Source: Candidatus Poribacteria bacterium | GTDB lineage: Bacteria; Poribacteria; WGA-4E; WGA-3G | Length of the DNA: 64,000 nt | Direction of reading: 5' to 3' | Assembly (NCBI GenBank): GCA_965205015.1 | Contig: OZ242029.1 | Coordinates: forward strand, 2,080,001 to 2,144,000 | Shown here: positions 49,249 through 62,556 of the stretch, piece by piece | Layout: each line of letters opens with the position of its first letter | How positions within the stretch are numbered: the first letter of the stretch is position 1 | The notes under the pieces: generated by a model | Database searches by the model: none | Told to the model about the DNA's origin: nothing | Seen by the model: the letters and a program-made list of their open reading frames with translations, nothing else | Translations under genes and position numbers: made by a program

Positions 49249-52200
49249 CTACTCGACAAGGATCTGATTGAAAAGCGCACGGGTCGTCTCTGTCCATTTT
49301 CCGTAGTCCTGTAAAAATGCCTCTGCAGCGGGTGTATCGTTGCTTCCGGTGTATCCGAGACGGCGTGCCAACTGTCCCAGTTCCGCACGATTTTTTGGAA
49401 GTGCGTCCAACGCCCGATCGTGAACAATACGGAGGGCGTTCTCGACGCGTCTCAGGAATTGATACGCTTCCCCTAATCCGTCACGCTGTGCCTCCGTCAG
49501 CACTCCAATTTTGTGCAATCTCTCAATTGCGAGCGGTGTATTTTGCACACGCACAGAGGTTTCTCCACCACCATGCACCAATTGAAGGGTTTGGACAACA
49601 AATTCTATATCCACAAGTCCGCCGTATCCTGACTTGACATTAACTGTCGAAGTTGGCGCTTTGCCGCCCCTTCTCCGCCGAGTAGATGTTCTTCGAGTCG
49701 CTTGTGCTTCTTTCCGCTGGCGTGTATGCACAATCTTGGCGATCTCCTCAGATGTTAGAGCATCCCCATAACAGAAGGTGTGGGCGATTTCCAAAAACTG
49801 GTTGCCGAGATGTTCTATGGCTCCCGCGACAACGCGAGCACGCGTCAACGCCTGGCGTTCCCAAACCTCCGCGGTGTTATCGTAGTAATTCTGGTATCCT
49901 GCCAACGGTAGCGCAATCGCACCCCCTGTCCCGTGTGGACGGAGCCGTAGATCGACTTCATAGATGCTCACCCCGTTTCCAGCAAGTCGGTTTACTAACT
50001 CCAAACCAACGGCTGAGAAGTATTGCACATTCGGCATGCCTTTTGTCGTCTCACCATCTGCCGAGTAGACGTACATAACGTCTAAATCCGAACTGAAATT
50101 CAATTCACGTCCACCGAATTTACCCATTGCAATGATCGCGAACGTTACCGGTGTTCCATCGGGAGCAAGTGGCGTGCCGTGTGCCTCGCGGAGTTCCGCC
50201 TCGATTTCTGGATGAATGGCTTGCAAAGTGGCTTCGGCTAAATCAGAGAGCTCTTGTGTCGTATCCGGCAAGGTCGCGTTCCCAAGGATGTTCCGTAAGG
50301 CGATACGCCAAATCTCGTCATTCTTATACCGTCGCAACATAGGCAACATCCTACCTTCAGGTGCCTGCTGGACCACCTGTAACGCCTCCGTTTGTTTCTC
50401 AGCGAGTGTCTTTGAGCGTTCTATCAACGTAGGGACCGTCAGTAGATCAAAGAGTTCAGGACTTGCGATGAGCATATCTGCGAGATATAAACTCGTGCCA
50501 CAGACACGCGTAAGCACTTCGAGTGTTGAAGGTTTTTCAGCGAACATCGTGTAGTAGCTGCTTCGCGCACCCACTTTATCCGTAAATGCTGAGAGGTAAC
50601 GAAGTGCCATGTCCGGATTTGGGGAGTCACGCAAAACATTCAGGAGCGTCGGCGCGAGTTTAAAGAAAGTCCGCCGCACACCCGGTGAGAATTGAATACC
50701 ATCCCCACCGTTCGCAAGTTGTCTTAAGAGACGCTGCGCATTTCTTACGTTTTCAAAACGGAACGTGCTCAAGAAAGTCTCTAATTGTTGCGGATCCTCT
50801 TCGGAAAGTAGAACAGCGATGTCAAGTCCATCTTCAGACTGGATCGAAGTCGCAGTGATCGTCTTAAAAATAGCGCGCACTTGTTCGGTGTGAACACGAT
50901 AGTCTTCTCGAAATGTCTCCAAGGCATCCGTTTCTGCCGTGTGCTGATACCCGACGCGCTGAGCAAGTTCTCGTTCCTCAGTTTCTTTCTCTGGGACGAG
51001 GTAACGCTGCTGATCCGCCTCAATTTGGATGCAGTTCTCAACGGTGCGTAAAAACCGGTAGGCAGCCATGAGCGCGTCCGCATCCGCCACGCTGAGGAGT
51101 GTGCTCTCTTTTAATGCCGCGAGTACTTCTAAGGTATTGTGTGAACACAATGACTTTCGCTTGGCACCGTGAATCATCTGCAGGCACTGGACAGTGAATT
51201 CAATGTCACGGATACCCCCCGGACCGAGTTTTACATGTTTTTCCAGAGTCTCACCTTCACTGACGAGCCGCTCCTCTATCCGTGCTTTAGTGCGTCGGAT
51301 GTCTGCCTTAATCTCGGTGAGCGTCACGCCATCTAAGTAACGCTGATAGACAAACGGCTGAATCATGCGAATGAACTCATCGCCAAACGCCATATCCCCG
51401 GCGACAGGACGCGCTTTAATTAAAGCTTGACGTTCCCACAAGTCGCCCCACCCTTCATAGTAACTCTCGTAACTCTCCATCGAACGGATGATGACACCTG
51501 CACTACTTTCCGGACGCAAGCGGATGTCAACACGAAAGACGTAACCCTCCGGGGTGATCTCACTCATCGCCTTGATGAGAAATTCACAAAAACGTGAAAA
51601 GTACTCGCTATTGTCAGTCCCCATATCGGTCCGTGCATCATCCGAATACACAAAAATAAGGTCAATGTCGGAACTGAAGTTGAGTTCATAGCCACCTAAC
51701 TTTCCCATCCCGATGATAGCGAAACGACACGGGGCAGTGCCTTCTTCATTGAGCGGTGTCCCGAACTTCGGTTTCATGATCTGATCGCGCCCGATTTCGT
51801 AGCAGTGTTGCAGCGCAGCTTCTGCCAAATTGCTCAATTCTAACGTCGTTGTCTCAACATTTGCCACCTTAAGCAGATCGCGCAGTCCGATACGGAGCGT
51901 TTCCCGGCGTTTGTATCGCCGCAAGATGCGGAGTTTCTGCTCTACCGAAGCAAACCGTGAGATGGATTGCTTAAGCTCCTGATACATCATCGCGGAGGTC
52001 TTCTGTGTCTCCATCACATCCGGATCGATAATATCATAGAAATATTCAGGCGTCCGAATGAGGATCTCGGACAAATAGGTGGACGCACCGAAACTTAAGA
52101 GGACGGGACGTATGAGAGGCTGCGCATCTCGCAGCAGATGATAGAGCGATTTGCGATTAAACGATGCCGCTGCAAAACGTGAAAAACGATTTAAAGCGGC

Positions 52201-52416
52201 TTCGGGGTTGGGTGAGTCTATAGCGGCTTTCAACAAGGGGATGACGAGGTCGGCGAAGCATGTTTGAAGGTCTGTGTCGTCGGTGGTGAGTTCTTGAAGG
52301 CTTCGCACTATAGATTCGTTATCTACACCACCGGCTCTATCGGCAGCGTTGGATAAAATCCGGTGAATTTCTTCTCTCTGATGTTGTGGGAGCGACAATT
52401 CTGTGTAATCTATCAT
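49249..52416 (-). CDS. glnE: Bifunctional glutamine synthetase adenylyltransferase/adenylyl-removing enzyme
   Basis: Two MGKxGG.ELNFSSD.D motifs; RVD.RLRP; WERQAL. Confidence 0.95.
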   Translation of the reverse strand: MIDYTELSLPQHQREEIHRILSNAADRAGGVDNESIVRSLQELTTDDTDLQTCFADLVIPLLKAAIDSPNPEAALNRFSRFAAASFNRKSLYHLLRDAQPLIRPVLLSFGASTYLSEILIRTPEYFYDIIDPDVMETQKTSAMMYQELKQSISRFASVEQKLRILRRYKRRETLRIGLRDLLKVANVETTTLELSNLAEAALQHCYEIGRDQIMKPKFGTPLNEEGTAPCRFAIIGMGKLGGYELNFSSDIDLIFVYSDDARTDMGTDNSEYFSRFCEFLIKAMSEITPEGYVFRVDIRLRPESSAGVIIRSMESYESYYEGWGDLWERQALIKARPVAGDMAFGDEFIRMIQPFVYQRYLDGVTLTEIKADIRRTKARIEERLVSEGETLEKHVKLGPGGIRDIEFTVQCLQMIHGAKRKSLCSHNTLEVLAALKESTLLSVADADALMAAYRFLRTVENCIQIEADQQRYLVPEKETEERELAQRVGYQHTAETDALETFREDYRVHTEQVRAIFKTITATSIQSEDGLDIAVLLSEEDPQQLETFLSTFRFENVRNAQRLLRQLANGGDGIQFSPGVRRTFFKLAPTLLNVLRDSPNPDMALRYLSAFTDKVGARSSYYTMFAEKPSTLEVLTRVCGTSLYLADMLIASPELFDLLTVPTLIERSKTLAEKQTEALQVVQQAPEGRMLPMLRRYKNDEIWRIALRNILGNATLPDTTQELSDLAEATLQAIHPEIEAELREAHGTPLAPDGTPVTFAIIAMGKFGGRELNFSSDLDVMYVYSADGETTKGMPNVQYFSAVGLELVNRLAGNGVSIYEVDLRLRPHGTGGAIALPLAGYQNYYDNTAEVWERQALTRARVVAGAIEHLGNQFLEIAHTFCYGDALTSEEIAKIVHTRQRKEAQATRRTSTRRRRGGKAPTSTVNVKSGYGGLVDIEFVVQTLQLVHGGGETSVRVQNTPLAIERLHKIGVLTEAQRDGLGEAYQFLRRVENALRIVHDRALDALPKNRAELGQLARRLGYTGSNDTPAAEAFLQDYGKWTETTRALFNQILVE

Positions 52417-57224: not shown

Positions 57225-58340
57225 ATGAAGCGTCTGAATCTCCGTATGTATGCGATGGTGCTTGCCCTCGTCTGTGTTTGGGTGATTTTCACACTCCTGA
57301 CCGGCGGCACCTTCCTCAGCACTCGGAACCTGTCCAACCTTTCTCGCCAAGCCGCGGTCACCGCCATCCTTGCCGTTGGCATGACCTTGGTCATCGTTTC
57401 TGCGAATATTGATCTCTCTGTCGGCTACGGTGCCGGATTGCTCGGTGCCATTGCAGCGATTGTACACGTCTGGTGGGGACAACCGATCCTCGTGACGCTC
57501 ATCGCTGTCTTAGGTATCGGGATTCTGATGGGGGTGATGCAAGGTTACCTTGTGGCGTATCAGCGAATCCCAGCGTTTATCGTCACATTAGGTGGATTTT
57601 TGGCATATCGCGGCTTGATGTTAGCGTTTACCAAAGGTGAGACCATCCTACTCCCAGACAATTGGCTCAAAGCCATCGGGAACGCCTATCTCTCGTCAGC
57701 ACTCGGATGGGGACTCATGGCCGTTGGATTAGGGGTCAACGGCTACCGCTTTTACCGGCAGCGAACCGCCCAGCGCCAATACAGTCCTGAGCAAACATCC
57801 TTGCGAACTTTCCTATTGAAGGTCATTGGAACATCTGCACTCATTGTAGTGTTCATCTCCGTGATGAATGCTCACAAAGGAATTCCCTTTCCAGTTTGCA
57901 TTCTATTTGGATTAGCGTTCATATTCCATTTTATCGCGAACCATACCCGTTTCGGGCGTTATGTGTATGCAGTCGGTGGAAACGCCGAAGCGGCGTATCT
58001 CTCCGGGATCAACGTCCGCGGGATTACGCTACGGGTGTTTGCAACCATGGGAGCGTTAATGGCGATCGCTGGCGTTGTTATGACGGCACGGGTCGGGAGT
58101 GCCAGTCCAGAAGCCGGACGCCTGTTGGAATTAGATGCCATTGCTGCGTGTGTTATCGGCGGTGCCAGTTTAATGGGCGGACGCGGGAGCATCTTCGGGG
58201 CAATTTTAGGCGCGTTCGTCATGGAAAGCCTCAACAACGGAATGAGCATGGCGAACATGGATGCCTCGTGGCAAGACATAATCAAAGGGATTGTGCTCGT
58301 CGCTGCCGTCGGATTTGATATGGCATCCCGGCGGCGATGA
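57225..58340 (+). CDS. Sugar ABC transporter permease (XylH/GguB-like)
   Basis: IDLSVG, IPAFIVTL, GRYVYAVGGN..AA.LSGI, ELDAIAA. Confidence 0.9.
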   Translation: MKRLNLRMYAMVLALVCVWVIFTLLTGGTFLSTRNLSNLSRQAAVTAILAVGMTLVIVSANIDLSVGYGAGLLGAIAAIVHVWWGQPILVTLIAVLGIGILMGVMQGYLVAYQRIPAFIVTLGGFLAYRGLMLAFTKGETILLPDNWLKAIGNAYLSSALGWGLMAVGLGVNGYRFYRQRTAQRQYSPEQTSLRTFLLKVIGTSALIVVFISVMNAHKGIPFPVCILFGLAFIFHFIANHTRFGRYVYAVGGNAEAAYLSGINVRGITLRVFATMGALMAIAGVVMTARVGSASPEAGRLLELDAIAACVIGGASLMGGRGSIFGAILGAFVMESLNNGMSMANMDASWQDIIKGIVLVAAVGFDMASRRR

Positions 58341-58464
58341 CAGTTTTCCTGCCACAAGCATCGTCCACGAAATTTCGCTATTCACAAAAAATTTAAACCT
58401 TTTTCCCAAAAAATCCCCTCTTTAAATCAAATCTAATTGGGCAAATCTTACTGGGAATTTATCC

Positions 58465-61400
58465 ATGCGATACGATTCATCAACCTACACAGACCTGACA
58501 GATGAAGAACTCATTCAGCTTGTGCGAGATGGGGATGAGGCGGCGTTTGCCCAACTCGCAGCCCGGCACAGCTCCAGAATTTGGCAGCTGGTGGTTTTAA
58601 ACTCCCGTCAGATCCGCGATGCTGAAGAAATTTTTCAAGATATCTGGGTAGCCGTCTGGGAAAACATCGGCGGCTTACGCGAGGTCAGCAGTTTCGGTGC
58701 TTGGCTCAGGAAGATAGCTTACACCACCTGTAGGAGATATTACACCACCAACTCGCACACAAGGGGTGAAATCCTTCAAAGTGCTGAACAACTCGCTGAA
58801 ACCATCGATCGGGATGTGCTTGCCCGTTTTCGTGAAACCGAACTTCGATCGGCTGTAACAGAAGCCGTACATGACCTTCCAGAGAAGGTGCGCACTGTCG
58901 CAGTGCTGTACTACTTAGAGATGTGGACGATCAAAGAGATTGCAACCGAGCTGGGTTTGGCGGTTGGCACCGTCAAGACAAGACTCAGCCAAATTCGAGC
59001 ACTTCTGCGCGAGGAATTTGGCGTTGAAGAAATTAAGAGGGGAAGAACTATGGCGCATCAAAAAGAGGTATCCAGACCGTCACGGGACAAAACTAAGGTC
59101 TTCGGTGTCGGCAACGCAGGTGGCAACGTTGTCAAACAAATGATTGGATCCGGTTTAAAGGGCATTGAATTTTACGCTGTGAACACAGATTTAGCAGCAC
59201 TCCGCACGTGCGATGGGGCAACACAGGTACAAATCGGTGCTGAAACTACCCAAGGACTCAGTGGGGATGCAAACCCTGAAATCGGCAGGAGAGCCGCTGA
59301 AGAGGACCTGGAAACGCTCAACGCCGCCGTTGCAGACGCTCGTATGGTTTTTGTTACAGCGGGCATGGGGGGTGGAACGGGAACAGGTGCCGCTCCGTTA
59401 ATCGCATCCATCGCTCGAGAGCAGGGCATTTTAACGATAGGTGTTGCGACACTCCCACTTGATGCCGAGGGGCAACGCCGCGCTGAACACGCAGAACTGG
59501 GACTCCATGAACTCCGAGAAAGCACCGATGCCGTTATCGTGATCCCGAATCAGCGGCTTCTTGATACTGTGGATACAGAACCCGCGGCGAGCGACGTGTT
59601 CCGGATGAGCGATGAAACCGCGTTACTCGGCATTAAAAGCATCTCTGATATTATTATGGAGTCCGGCGAGATTACCATTGATTTCACCGATATAGAGGGT
59701 ATCATGAAGGATGCTGGCACGGTGTTGATGGGCATAGGGCAAGCATCCGGTGAAAACAGAGCGCGAGTCGCCATGGAAAACGCTATCGCCTCACCACTGC
59801 TGGACGGGAACAACATCGGGAGCGCAACTGGGCTGATTGTTAATATTAGTGCCACACCAGACTTTATAATGAATGAATTGGATACGGCGATGCGCGTTCT
59901 CCAAGACACAGCATTTGACGCACAGATTATCTTTGGACTCGTCTATAGAGACGACGATCCTGAACCTGCAGGCACGGTTTATGTCACTATCCTCGCCGCG
60001 GGAATTGAGGCACAAAGCGGACCTGCTGTCGCACCCTCCACCCAGCAGCGGGGGAGCTCTCCCGGAGGCGGCGCTCGCGTCTCGTCTACAACCACGTCCG
60101 AATTTGTTCATCTGCACAACCATAGCGAGTATAGCATGCTCGATGGTGCCTGCCGTATTCCAGATATGGTGGACTGGGCAGTTGAGAATAGTGTTCCTGC
60201 TGTCGCACTCACCGACCACGGAAACATGTTCGGCGCATGGGAACTATACAGCAAGGCAACAGAGGCAGGAGTCAACCCAATCATCGGTTGTGAGGTATAT
60301 ATCGCACAGGGGGGTCGACAGACGCGTGGGCAGGAGCAGGAAGATCCTTATCACCTCACGCTGCTCGCCGAAGATGCAACCGGTTACCGAAATCTCTTGG
60401 AATTGGTATCCCTTGGATACACAGAGGGCTTCAATCGCAAACCGCGCATCGACATGGAAATCTTACGTGAACACCGAGACGGGATTATCGCCCTAACGGG
60501 ATGTATCCAAGGACAGGTGCCACAGCTCCTGTGTGCAAATCGGCGCGACGAAGCGGTTCAGAGCTTCAAAACGTTGATGGAGATAATGGGGAATCAGAAC
60601 CTCTATGTTGAGCTGCAAAACCACTACATCGACCAGGAGCTCAAAGCGTATCCGGTGATGGTGCAGCTGGCAAACGAGTTCAATCTTCCGATCGTCGGCA
60701 CAAACGATTGCCACTACCTTCGCAAATCAGATCACGGGATGCACGACGTCCTCCTCTGTATCCAAGCGAAGAAGACTATCAACGATCAAGAGCGGCTCCG
60801 CTATGATAACCACTTCTACTTCAAAAGCGTTGATGAGATGCGAGAGGCACTGAAGGATTACCCGCCGGAGGCTATCAGTAACACGCTTGAAATTGCGAAT
60901 CGGTGCAACCTCGAACTCGACTATCAACAGGATCCGATGCCGAAATACGGGGTCCCCGAAGGACATACACACGATAGTTATCTGAAGGAATTGTGCTACC
61001 AAGGGTTACGTGAAAAATATGGTGAACTCTCCGAACCCATCCAACAACGGATCGATTACGAACTGGATGTCATTAGACAAGGAAACCATGCCAACTATTT
61101 TCTGATTGTGGCAGATTATGTCAACTACGCCCACAAACAAGGCTACCCGCTTTCCGCCCGCGGTTCTGCCGCCGGCAGTCTGGTGCTATACGCACTCGAT
61201 GTGATTGGTTTCAATCCGATGGATCACGGTTGTCTGTTTGAACGATTTTTAAACCGTGAACGTCTCAGTACTCCGGATATTGATATAGATTTCGCCGACC
61301 GCGCACGTGAACATGTAATTGCGTATCTCGCGAGGAAATACGGCGCGGATTCCGTCAGTAAAGTCGCTACCTTTGCGACATTGGGTGCGAAAGCCGCTAT

Positions 61401-62556
61401 CAAAGATGTCGGTCGCGCGCTTGACGTGTCTCTCGAAACTGTCGAAAAGTTGACAGGGCTCATTCCGAGTATTCCGTATATCACGCTTGATGAAGCCTTG
61501 GAACAGGTTCCCGAATTTCAGGCACTCGCTGAACTCCCCGAAAATACGGAGTTGATTGAGCTTAGTAAAGCAGTTGAAGGTATGAAACGACACGTTTCCA
61601 CTCACACCTCTGCAATTGTCGTTTCGGACGGTCCGTTGACGAATTACGTACCACTGTTCAAGGATAGACATGACCAAATCGCGACACAGTTTGAAGGGGA
61701 AACCGTCGAAGATGTCGGTATCGTCAAATTTGATTCCCTCGGCTTACGGAGTCTCACTGAAACGCACGATTGTCTTCAGATGATTGAAGCGAATCGCGGC
61801 GTCAAAATTAAACTGGAAGATATCCCTTTTGGCGATAAGGAAACCTATTCGCTGGTTAGCAAGGGACTCATCGCTGGTTTATTCCAGTTAGCAGCTTCCC
61901 CCGGCATGTATCGGGTTGTCACTGAGCTTAAACCTGACAACTTTGAGGAATTCTGCGCGATTATTGCCCTCTATCGACCAGGTCCTATAGAAAATGGGGA
62001 TATGCAGTGCTACATGGACCGCAAGAATGGGCGGCAGCCCGTGGAATATATACACCCCTCACTTGAGAGCACACTCAAAAGCACTTACGGTGTATGCCTC
62101 TATCAGGAGCAGGTGATGCAGATTGCTCACGATATGGCAGGCTTTACGCTCGCTGAAGCGGACATACTCCGCCACGCGATCGGCAGAAAAATGGATGGGA
62201 AAAATGAGGCGTTACTTACGGCACAGCGTGAGAAATTCGTTGAGGGCGCAATAGAAAAGGGTTTTGATAAAGAAGAGGCTGAAAGGGTATTCGAGTCGCT
62301 TGAACCTTCTGCACGTTATGCCTTTAACAAGGCGCATGCCGTCGCCTACTCAATGTTAGCGTATCGCATGGCTTATCTCAAAACGCACTATCCGCACGAA
62401 TTTATGGCGACAATGATGATGGGTGAGGCAGACGATTCAGCAAAAATTGCCTACTACCGAGAGGAGTGTGAAGAGCTCTCTAACTTCTTAGGTGTAAGGA
62501 TCGATCCGCTTCCGCTTGCCGCGCAATCCCACGACGCCGCTGGCGAGGTTTCCTAA
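58465..62556 (+). CDS. Fusion: ECF sigma factor (~58465-59022) + FtsZ GTPase domain (~59090-60010) + truncated DNA polymerase III alpha (~60097-62556)
   Basis: DAEEIFQD/FGAWL/GTVKTRL; GMGGGTGTGAAP, IPNQRL; HLHNHSEYSMLDG, PDIDIDF, KFDSLGL, YAFNKAH; no stop codon across junctions. Confidence 0.9.
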   Translation: MRYDSSTYTDLTDEELIQLVRDGDEAAFAQLAARHSSRIWQLVVLNSRQIRDAEEIFQDIWVAVWENIGGLREVSSFGAWLRKIAYTTCRRYYTTNSHTRGEILQSAEQLAETIDRDVLARFRETELRSAVTEAVHDLPEKVRTVAVLYYLEMWTIKEIATELGLAVGTVKTRLSQIRALLREEFGVEEIKRGRTMAHQKEVSRPSRDKTKVFGVGNAGGNVVKQMIGSGLKGIEFYAVNTDLAALRTCDGATQVQIGAETTQGLSGDANPEIGRRAAEEDLETLNAAVADARMVFVTAGMGGGTGTGAAPLIASIAREQGILTIGVATLPLDAEGQRRAEHAELGLHELRESTDAVIVIPNQRLLDTVDTEPAASDVFRMSDETALLGIKSISDIIMESGEITIDFTDIEGIMKDAGTVLMGIGQASGENRARVAMENAIASPLLDGNNIGSATGLIVNISATPDFIMNELDTAMRVLQDTAFDAQIIFGLVYRDDDPEPAGTVYVTILAAGIEAQSGPAVAPSTQQRGSSPGGGARVSSTTTSEFVHLHNHSEYSMLDGACRIPDMVDWAVENSVPAVALTDHGNMFGAWELYSKATEAGVNPIIGCEVYIAQGGRQTRGQEQEDPYHLTLLAEDATGYRNLLELVSLGYTEGFNRKPRIDMEILREHRDGIIALTGCIQGQVPQLLCANRRDEAVQSFKTLMEIMGNQNLYVELQNHYIDQELKAYPVMVQLANEFNLPIVGTNDCHYLRKSDHGMHDVLLCIQAKKTINDQERLRYDNHFYFKSVDEMREALKDYPPEAISNTLEIANRCNLELDYQQDPMPKYGVPEGHTHDSYLKELCYQGLREKYGELSEPIQQRIDYELDVIRQGNHANYFLIVADYVNYAHKQGYPLSARGSAAGSLVLYALDVIGFNPMDHGCLFERFLNRERLSTPDIDIDFADRAREHVIAYLARKYGADSVSKVATFATLGAKAAIKDVGRALDVSLETVEKLTGLIPSIPYITLDEALEQVPEFQALAELPENTELIELSKAVEGMKRHVSTHTSAIVVSDGPLTNYVPLFKDRHDQIATQFEGETVEDVGIVKFDSLGLRSLTETHDCLQMIEANRGVKIKLEDIPFGDKETYSLVSKGLIAGLFQLAASPGMYRVVTELKPDNFEEFCAIIALYRPGPIENGDMQCYMDRKNGRQPVEYIHPSLESTLKSTYGVCLYQEQVMQIAHDMAGFTLAEADILRHAIGRKMDGKNEALLTAQREKFVEGAIEKGFDKEEAERVFESLEPSARYAFNKAHAVAYSMLAYRMAYLKTHYPHEFMATMMMGEADDSAKIAYYREECEELSNFLGVRIDPLPLAAQSHDAAGEVS

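Follow-up and report, generated by a model that had tools for sequence, protein, structure and literature searches.

The 64,000-nt window analysed here (contig OZ242029.1 of a Candidatus Poribacteria bacterium) carries a gene in which an extracytoplasmic function (ECF) sigma factor, an FtsZ and a DNA polymerase III alpha subunit (DnaE) are joined in a single open reading frame (ORF). A sequence-only reading of this DNA had described the fusion, had taken it for a one-component sensor in which copies of essential proteins serve as baits or decoys for phage- or toxin-encoded inhibitors or as sensors of GTP or primed DNA, and had called for a look at assembly coverage of the junctions, at domain architectures in relatives, at separate ftsZ and dnaE genes and at selection. 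We report that the fusion is a genuine gene on the chromosome of (sponge-associated) Poribacteria and is inherited vertically, that its FtsZ and DnaE parts are paralogous to the ftsZ and dnaE found elsewhere in the genome, and that its sigma module belongs to a tight ECF family whose members have the sigma module, a promoter motif, a leader and a junction in common and carry a swappable C-terminal module. The features of the gene, together with the modules found on its paralogues, are collected in Table 1.

Table 1. Features of the sigma-FtsZ-DnaE gene in the window, and C-terminal modules carried by its sigma paralogues.
Feature	Position	Strand	Description
Promoter-like motif TAAACC-N18-CTCTTT	58394-58423	+	follows a T-run; exact match; ECF-type layout
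5' leader	58429-58459	+	two diverged copies of a ~13-14-nt unit (AAATCTAATTGGG-like); upstream alignment
Whole open frame	58465-62556	+	1363 codons and stop; ATG start
ECF sigma module	58465-59034	+	residues 1-190; region 2 at 34-97, region 4 at 130-183; Pfam, NCBIfam
Shine-Dalgarno-like purine run (AAGAGGGG), then invariant ATG	59035-59052	+	Met196, in frame; ATG at 59050-59052
FtsZ module	59059-60042	+	residues 199-526; GTPase and C-terminal domains, no docking peptide
FtsZ/DnaE linker	60043-60096	+	variable, Ser/Thr/Pro/Gly-rich, no Met; alignment, pLDDT ~30
DnaE module	60097-62478	+	residues 545-1338: PHP, palm, thumb, fingers
Lineage-specific tail and stop codon	62479-62556	+	at the fingers/beta-binding domain boundary; C-terminal alignment
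Paralogue module: three-domain DnaN clamp			583 aa; Pfam
Paralogue module: FtsZ GTPase domain alone			~408 aa, in 4/5 genomes; Pfam
Paralogue module: WD40 propellers			866-894 aa; Pfam
Paralogue module: helix-turn-helix (HTH) domain			311 aa; Pfam
Paralogue module: SAICAR synthetase (PurC)	L073:5816-7306	+	496 aa; Pfam 242 bits, complete

The frame contains no internal stop codon under translation table 11, and its base composition is even along the gene. Within the sigma part, Pfam recognizes Sigma70_r2 (residues 34-97, 29.9 bits against a threshold of 24) and Sigma70_r4_2 (130-181, 42.7 against 25.7), and both Sigma70_ECF (23.3 against 21.1) and the NCBIfam model TIGR02937 (79.1 bits against 42.9) score above their thresholds. 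Neither Pfam nor NCBIfam finds region 1.1 or region 3 of sigma-70 anywhere in the 1363-residue protein; with regions 2 and 4 only, the module is a group 4 ECF sigma-70 factor. The second part matches Tubulin (211-369, 138 bits) and FtsZ_C (418-515), exceeds the cut-off of the ftsZ model TIGR00065 (314.6 against 295.2 bits) and retains the G-box and the T7-loop aspartates, and it is by these marks an FtsZ. The third part matches PHP (549-720, 186 bits), DNA_pol3_alpha (838-1093, 278 bits) and DNA_pol3_finger (1097-1266), and its score for the DnaE model TIGR00594 is 938.9 against 434. The equivalog models for full-length DnaE stay below their cut-offs (973 against 1260 and 959 against 1002), and the NCBIfam DnaE models, ~1146-1151 positions long, are matched at positions 3-800 only. 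The module is a DnaE core with PHP, palm/thumb, fingers and the catalytic aspartates, and not a full-length DnaE.

Translation, Pfam and NCBIfam thus bear out the architecture given in the sequence-only reading, and the motifs it listed (GGGTGTG, ITIDFTD, PLDAEG, PDIDID and KFD) are all present in the translation. Across the alignment, the positions that we take to be catalytic, as assigned from E. coli FtsZ and DnaE, are strongly conserved: the FtsZ G-box is invariant in 55/55 aligned orthologues, the T7 aspartates, both of which are present in the window, are kept in 51/55 and 54/55, and the polymerase aspartate columns are kept in 47/47, 45/47, 47/47 and 47/47 sequences. The departures in T7 and T5 that the same reading stressed do occur in the window but are minority states, as the family consensus reads INVDFAD and PFD[SF]EG and the T7 asparagine position holds Asn in 40/55 orthologues and Thr, the window form ITIDFTD, in 3/55. 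Its statement that the PHP metal ligands are kept holds for the N-terminal HxH..E, which is conserved in 49-53 of 50-53 sequences within a full-length Pfam PHP match and which comprises only part of the nine ligands. Alignment with the canonical copies also upholds the loss of docking parts. In Poribacteria the canonical FtsZ has a classic peptide of FtsA-binding type at its C-terminus, whereas the fused FtsZ passes from the globular domain straight into a variable linker and then into DnaE. The Qxx[LM]F-type clamp motif, the OB (oligonucleotide-binding) region and the C-terminal region of canonical DnaE all lie past the end of the short and long fused forms, none of which reaches the clamp motif.

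Because the source organism is uncultured, and three unrelated housekeeping families in one frame are suspicious a priori, an assembly chimera or a sequencing error that removed stop codons has to be considered; its probability is so small that we regard a chimera as excluded by recurrence across clusters and genomes and by independent bridging contigs. A word-indexed search of 5.8 billion proteins gave 288 relatives of similar length, of which 120 were listed. The sigma, Tubulin, PHP and DNA_pol3_alpha domains occur together in 115 of these 120 clusters, which come from several sources, are 55-95% identical to the query across 99-100% of its length and lie in some cases on contigs of 4-6.7 Mb; the fusion is also found in complete chromosomes of 4.8-6.7 Mb. 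When one genome per species was scanned, 75 loci were found, 73 of them titled Poribacteria and 4, from two metagenome-assembled genomes (MAGs), just 'uncultured bacterium', and all three parts share one open frame at 47 of the 75. Additionally, in a set of 150 genomes from the phylum to which one fusion-bearing genome belongs, an open frame of at least 1340 aa that begins with the sigma-FtsZ part is present in at least 50. The fusion is therefore not unique to the window. Both junctions are bridged with 0 differences by a contig from run X1 (58300-61237) and by one from run X4, of an independent study (59019-60186). Short contigs from the RNA-library run X20 are ~86-90% identical and represent relatives or paralogues, one of them spanning the sigma/FtsZ junction; the evidence from all of these runs consists of contigs, and those of X20 are not evidence for expression of the window gene. 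Furthermore, upstream synteny is identical in 27/27 compared loci, including clades whose fusions are only 57-64% identical, and every module is under purifying selection (see below). An alternative genetic code was rejected, the frame being open under table 11, as was a self-cleaving or intein arrangement like that of split cyanobacterial DnaE, since the tail is short, lineage-specific and stop-terminated and no DnaE piece lies downstream. In public records these Candidatus Poribacteria genes bear the names 'cell division protein FtsZ' or 'DNA polymerase III subunit alpha', which is a warning for annotation.

For comparison with canonical copies we used five complete related genomes (G001-G005), all of which have a separate canonical ftsZ and a separate canonical dnaE. 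The canonical FtsZ frames (426-448 aa) score ~391 bits against 307-337 bits for fused FtsZ, and a third, half-length FtsZ match is present in 4/5. Canonical DnaE is 1180-1189 aa long; fused DnaE occurs in 4/5 of the genomes, the fifth having a 554-aa sigma-FtsZ only. The DnaE part in the window is 74-79% identical to canonical DnaE (63% to a divergent copy, L074) and 62-88% identical to other fused DnaE, and it starts at the fourth residue of canonical DnaE. For the FtsZ part, identity to the canonical copy is 57-62%.

Ratios of nonsynonymous to synonymous substitution rates (dN/dS) were calculated pairwise by the Nei-Gojobori method on close orthologues, distant pairs being synonymously saturated and unreliable. 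The sigma module is the most constrained (~0.05-0.13), followed by the three DnaE parts (0.07-0.23) and the fused FtsZ (0.13-0.32, mostly ~0.2), while the two linkers stand above the domains (0.2-1). The values are thus well below 1 in all three modules, which does not point to neutral debris. For the same genome pairs, the first 820 residues of DnaE give 0.04-0.06 in the canonical and 0.08-0.12 in the fused copy, and FtsZ gives 0.07-0.11 and 0.14-0.21, respectively, so that the fused copies are about twice as relaxed as the canonical ones yet clearly constrained. Over both comparisons, the modules are put at 0.05-0.09 (sigma), 0.16-0.20 (fused FtsZ) and 0.08-0.15 (fused DnaE). Between L031 and L032, the synonymous distance is 1.09 in FtsZ against 0.10 in sigma and 0.18 in PHP, and between L010 and L024 the distances likewise differ several-fold between modules; this discordance suggests recombination within the gene, swapping modules or alleles between strains.

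The junction between sigma and FtsZ carries the marks of a translation start. Its ATG is present in 55/55 orthologues, and 5-15 nt before it stands a purine-rich run of Shine-Dalgarno (SD) type whose encoded residues are variable. A strict SD core (GGAG or GAGG) precedes this ATG in 44/55 orthologues and a relaxed core in 55/55, compared with a background of 4.6% and 10.4%, respectively, at 1734 other internal Met codons of the orthologues; the annotated first start codon has a strict SD core in 4/55. These counts come from related sequences and are not independent events. The SD and ATG span the divergence of the whole family and are present in all paralogues with other C-terminal modules. 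An internal translation start at Met196, which would yield a sigma-less FtsZ-DnaE beside the full-length protein, is probable, and the internal ribosome-binding site, with the product it implies, was not foreseen in the sequence-only reading. No Met or SD is found at the FtsZ/DnaE junction in the alignment, and that link is consequently obligate.

An AlphaFold2 model was obtained for residues 1-545 from 71 aligned sequences, with a mean predicted local distance difference test score (pLDDT) of 76.8 and a predicted template modelling score (pTM) of 0.58. Sigma2 (helices 13-93) and sigma4 (~125-184; helices 107-184) are modelled with moderate confidence and the FtsZ fold (209-512) with high confidence (pLDDT ~90). 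The linker that joins them (187-205) is disordered, with pLDDT below 50, as is the tail (517-545), and in the model sigma and FtsZ are flexibly linked.

A search with the sigma module in the five genomes returned paralogues at 53-75% identity that end in other modules (Table 1). Searched against 1.8 billion cluster representatives, the module gives 24 clusters at E <= 1e-30, with full-length members at least 48% identical, and then a gap before the generic ECFs, which are at most 39% identical; record titles and source names served to judge how widely the family is spread taxonomically. Among the 24 are sigma joined to DnaN domains II-III, sigma joined directly to PHP, sigma joined to full FtsZ and several sigma-WD40 proteins. 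A census of fusions of 272-868 aa, in which 120 of 295 matches were listed, contains 45 sigma-FtsZ, 30 with the tubulin domain only, 38 sigma-DnaN (34 with the full three-domain clamp and 4 without its first domain), 6 sigma-FtsZ-PHP and 1 sigma only. Partial modules such as DnaN II+III and the FtsZ GTPase domain keep what we take to be the known ligand pockets. The housekeeping domains found on this sigma N-terminus thus comprise DnaN, FtsZ, the FtsZ N-domain, PHP, WD40 and, once, PurC. The sigma-PurC gene lies directly upstream of the sigma-FtsZ gene of the same MAG (L073:7480-9141) and is a recent event or possibly an assembly problem. No anti-sigma gene adjoins the fusion in the window or at the compared loci; a 274-aa upstream ORF without a Pfam match is present at 11/27 of these. 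With its ~1170-residue extension, the window protein has the layout of the one-component ECF type.

DnaN also turns up outside this family. A second, unrelated ECF family (~33-36% identical) is fused to full three-domain DnaN at L146:5687-7405 (+) in G003, and similar frames of 574-581 aa occur in G001 and G002. The gene order at L146 is MacB-like permease, sigma-DnaN, two ABC-2 permeases, sigma-FtsZ-N-domain and MacB-like permease. Stand-alone DnaN genes (frames of 368-406 aa) number 2-4 in each of G001-G005, some in tandem, beside the sigma-DnaN fusions, and G001 has in addition a 461-aa frame with a partial DnaN match.

Upstream of the gene, the promoter-like motif consists of an 'AAC' -35-like element and a C/T-rich -10-like element, and 0.22 matches would be expected in the window at one mismatch or fewer. 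It is conserved upstream of orthologues, including clades that are 55-60% identical; no sigma-70-type promoter matches upstream of the gene, and no terminator-like site lies inside it. The leader unit, AAATCTAATTGGG-like, occurs in 1-3 tandem copies across orthologues and also precedes the start codons of paralogues. We scanned ten complete genomes for exact matches to the motif and found 35, against 8 for the reversed control. Sixteen of the 35 lie just upstream of genes that begin with the same sigma module, and three, in three genomes, lie upstream of orthologous MacB-type permease genes (MacB_PCD and FtsX). This layout suggests that the sigma factor is autoregulated. At L157 (G115:C1:3900535) the motif precedes a gene with a signal-peptide-like N-terminus and a WD40 region that starts like that of the sigma-WD40 paralogues, and in G001 (L144:17-1978) a sigma-less WD40-like protein adjoins a MacB-like gene.

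The modules have been cut back repeatedly. Short fused forms of 1341-1363 aa, the type found in the window, break off directly behind the fingers domain and have five or more different tails, which indicates several independent truncations at one domain boundary, and long forms of 1420-1441 aa continue for ~70 residues through a helix-hairpin-helix domain. One protein (P0077, L018:10001-15232 (+), 1743 aa) extends the long form by ~320 residues past this domain, and its tail has no Pfam match beyond HHH_6. Sigma-FtsZ forms of 553-561 aa (554-574 aa from stop to stop) terminate in remnants of the DnaE N-terminus, one of them retaining ~75 DnaE residues, and 6 of the 120 listed relatives end within or after PHP, which together indicate that the DnaE part was lost secondarily and more than once. 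In a separate group of genomes, the sigma-FtsZ proteins are 594-630 aa long and 43-47% identical. In a FastTree tree of the DnaE part (69 rows, no outgroup, leaving out the duplicate loci L081-L094 except L086 and rows with fewer than 700 aligned residues), two fused clades of 12 and 36 rows meet the canonical copies in an unresolved centre, and a single origin of fused DnaE is possible. The sigma-FtsZ-N-domain proteins L142:1475-2701 (-) and P0126 end in residues that resemble the first of DnaE (Ser-Glu-Phe-His); proteins of this kind may be deletion derivatives of a sigma-FtsZ-DnaE ancestor, and chance could also account for the likeness.

The surroundings of the gene fit the earlier remark that it stands outside a dcw or replication operon, neither of which is found around it in the window. 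Upstream lie genes for a xylose-isomerase-like TIM-barrel protein, an enolase-superfamily enzyme, a short-chain dehydrogenase, TatD and an ABC permease, and downstream, on the opposite strand, a gene for a solute-binding protein that is common to 19/27 compared loci. With such neighbours, and with a separate, higher-scoring FtsZ in 5/5 genomes, the fused copy does not have the role and location of a cell-division FtsZ. A few kb further upstream, 49249-52416 (-) encodes a GlnE-type glutamine synthetase adenylyltransferase (1055 aa) beside a gene for an NHL-repeat protein; both are ordinary genes and belong to the conserved neighbourhood in close relatives only.

As for function, we see about an even chance that the C-terminal modules are the built-in input, or bait, domain of the sigma factor. 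A one-component sigma with a C-terminal input domain fits the varied modules and the lack of an adjacent anti-sigma gene. The modules would stand in for an anti-sigma factor or a WD40 extension as the input and would bind what the genuine proteins bind: FtsZ subunits, GTP, primed DNA, dNTPs, partner proteins or inhibitors. Their occupancy or assembly state would decide whether the flexibly linked sigma joins RNA polymerase, and the active sigma would drive its own promoter and at least the MacB-type ABC exporter gene. The sigma-less FtsZ-DnaE from the internal start could join the full-length protein in a common assembly by way of FtsZ, in which case it would behave as a co-expressed anti-sigma does. 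The one-component sensor of the sequence-only reading has gained from the family of varied modules and from the missing anti-sigma gene, but none of the findings shows that the modules are decoys for phage or toxin inhibitors or that they control sigma. The signal could be hostile, an inhibitor binding the bait, or physiological, such as assembly state, GTP or dNTP levels or primed DNA, and we rate the two about equally likely. The exporter target leans towards the former, as do the exporter genes that abound around sister genes, the high number of DnaN copies and the fact that bare ligand-pocket domains have been retained; the conserved catalytic residues and low dN/dS lean towards the latter. 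In the most specific hostile version, attack on FtsZ, DnaE or DnaN by an antibiotic, toxin or phage protein would be sensed directly on the bait, and exporter genes and perhaps other protective ones would be transcribed; we think such 'integrated-bait' sigmas rather unlikely.

Several points weigh against the input-domain interpretation as a whole. A full-length product, sigma activity and regulation by the modules are all predicted from the sequence. The conservation of SD and ATG at the junction could mean that FtsZ-DnaE is made mostly as a protein of its own, the covalent link being incidental. No confident contact between sigma and FtsZ appears in the model of residues 1-545, so autoinhibition by docking is unsupported. 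Conserved catalytic residues make it seem that enzymatic activity matters, which a pure bait would not need, and the DnaE part has been lost or cut back repeatedly, so some lineages can do without it. The PurC fusion stands alone, with no second case among the 120 listed relatives of 272-868 aa. The promoter motif was derived from these same fusion genes, which makes its recurrence at orthologues circular; independent support for it consists of the paralogues and the MacB-like genes only, the latter linked in 3/10 genomes by the exact pattern.

If the covalent link is functionless, the gene may be a fused operon that began as a sigma gene with translationally coupled genes behind it; the stop codon of sigma would have been lost in the ancestor of the family, and the modules would still be made mainly from their own ribosome-binding site as extra paralogues under sigma control, for instance spare or inhibitor-tolerant copies, with the read-through product tolerated and not used. 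The invariant SD and ATG at the junction in all 55 orthologues and in paralogues, the rarity of a strict SD at the first start codon and a G004 sigma-DnaN gene that keeps a second SD and ATG at the start of DnaN speak for this, as does the evidence that duplication of the target is common in these genomes, with their 2-4 stand-alone DnaN genes. An extra DnaN copy is, moreover, known as self-resistance from the griselimycin/mycoplanecin-type clusters for DnaN-targeting antibiotics (PMC10817943, in the available sections). We nevertheless judge this account unlikely: the junction frame is open in every examined orthologue and paralogue, down to ~45-55% identity, where neutrality would predict frequent stops or frameshifts; the FtsZ/DnaE link has no start of its own; and modules without docking peptide or clamp and tau binding, half-FtsZ and two-domain DnaN could not replace essential proteins.

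That the modules instead carry sigma into the divisome or replisome, to FtsZ filaments, primer ends or the loaded DnaN clamp, and so couple transcription positively or negatively to division and replication, without serving as a ligand-sensing switch, is an idea that we find quite unlikely. It draws on the fact that the recurrent modules, FtsZ, DnaE and DnaN, are all replisome or divisome proteins, on the frequency of full three-domain DnaN fusions (34 of 120 listed), on the conserved catalytic and assembly residues of FtsZ and on the precedent of T4 late transcription, a system of gp55, gp33 and gp45 in which the clamp gp45 activates the sigma-like gp55, and of phage Mu, which uses the host beta clamp (PMC2988020, PMC7892883 and PMC12867686, in their available parts). 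However, the fused DnaE lacks the clamp motif, OB region and C-terminal region with which it could hold to the replisome, the fused FtsZ lacks its membrane-anchor peptide, partial modules (FtsZ N-domain in 30 and DnaN II+III in 4 of 120 listed) cannot form normal filaments or rings, and the WD40 members of the sigma family do not fit. Very unlikely, in our estimate, is a cell-cycle brake, in which truncated, dominant-negative FtsZ, DnaE or DnaN would poison Z-ring anchoring and replisome assembly once the autoregulated sigma fires, and growth would slow or stop, as in dormancy, growth control in a symbiont or abortive infection. It agrees with modules that keep assembly and catalytic surfaces but lack docking parts, with the positive-feedback layout of the promoter and with an internal start that could yield abundant sigma-less module, but it gives no reason for joining the brake covalently to its own sigma, and neither the WD40 members nor the MacB-type exporter target fit.

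ECF sigmas with a C-terminal extension are a known kind; that of ECF41 is SnoaL-like and that of ECF42 consists of tetratricopeptide repeats (TPR). Like ECF41, ECF42 and ECF57, the window protein is a group 4 sigma with regions 2 and 4, a long C-terminal extension, no adjacent anti-sigma and a promoter layout of the autoregulation type. Regulatory extensions, including WD40 in ECF57, are reported in the available text of a review and of an ECF reclassification (PMC8999054, PMC7826278), and the sections of the review at hand describe docking of the extension on sigma for ECF41/42 and, for ECF57, WD40-like repeats and two conserved cysteines that join sigma2 and sigma4 (PMC8999054). Paralogues of the window sigma carry WD40 propellers as ECF57 does; the window protein itself has no WD40 and only one invariant cysteine (C89) in its sigma module, and in these two features it does not conform to ECF57. 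Unlike the docking on sigma given in those sections for ECF41/42 (PMC8999054), the AlphaFold2 model of the window protein shows no docking of extension on sigma. The main text of the reclassification, supplements aside, has 0 occurrences of FtsZ, tubulin, WD40 or Poribacteria (PMC7826278), and an extension of FtsZ/DnaE type does not appear in the available sections of the review of non-canonical ECFs (PMC8999054). What sets the present extension apart from those of ECF41, ECF42 and ECF57 is that it comprises a near-complete FtsZ and two thirds of a DnaE, or DnaN in sister genes, with the catalytic sites kept. No such fusion is described in the literature found on Poribacteria, ECF sigmas, C-terminal extensions, sliding clamps and decoys, and relative to that literature the nature of the extension is new.

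Plant NLR (nucleotide-binding leucine-rich repeat) immune receptors follow a guard/decoy logic in which an integrated decoy, a copy of the pathogen's target, sits inside a signalling protein. The poribacterial family resembles them in that one signalling module carries various target-like modules; unlike the plant decoys, it is not known to have an immune output and bears no sign of an arms race (dN/dS 0.1-0.2), and the sole non-sigma gene found behind the motif is an ABC exporter permease. With T4 late transcription it has in common that a promoter-specificity factor is physically tied to a replisome protein, which makes it possible for replication to condition transcription. In T4 and Mu, as far as the available parts of those sources go, this link is viral, non-covalent and made through clamp-binding peptides, whereas the poribacterial link is covalent and encoded as a fusion on the chromosome of a cell, and the partners in the window are FtsZ and a DnaE without the clamp motif, DnaN being found in sister genes only. 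The likeness to DnaN self-resistance lies in the extra paralogues of essential proteins (2-4 DnaN and sigma-DnaN) and in the ABC exporter genes of one cluster; in contrast, the fused copies are truncated and cannot substitute, and no biosynthetic gene cluster was seen adjoining the window gene.

In these Poribacteria, copies of the cell's replication and division proteins have been joined time and again to a single sigma scaffold, and the resulting fusions have been kept under selection across the phylum. ECF sigmas are a major means of signalling in bacteria, and the way in which signals reach them when no anti-sigma factor is involved is an open question. With a promoter motif and one or more target genes now available as candidates, the proposal that the modules serve as input can be tested directly. 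If the modules are inputs, they would represent a new principle, a sensor built from a copy of the thing that it monitors, and would give transcription a direct link to the replisome and divisome, or to agents that inhibit them, in sponge symbionts that are uncultured and surrounded by many bioactive compounds. Should the modules prove to be baits or decoys, these sigma factors would be a bacterial counterpart of the plant integrated decoys, a principle new for bacteria.

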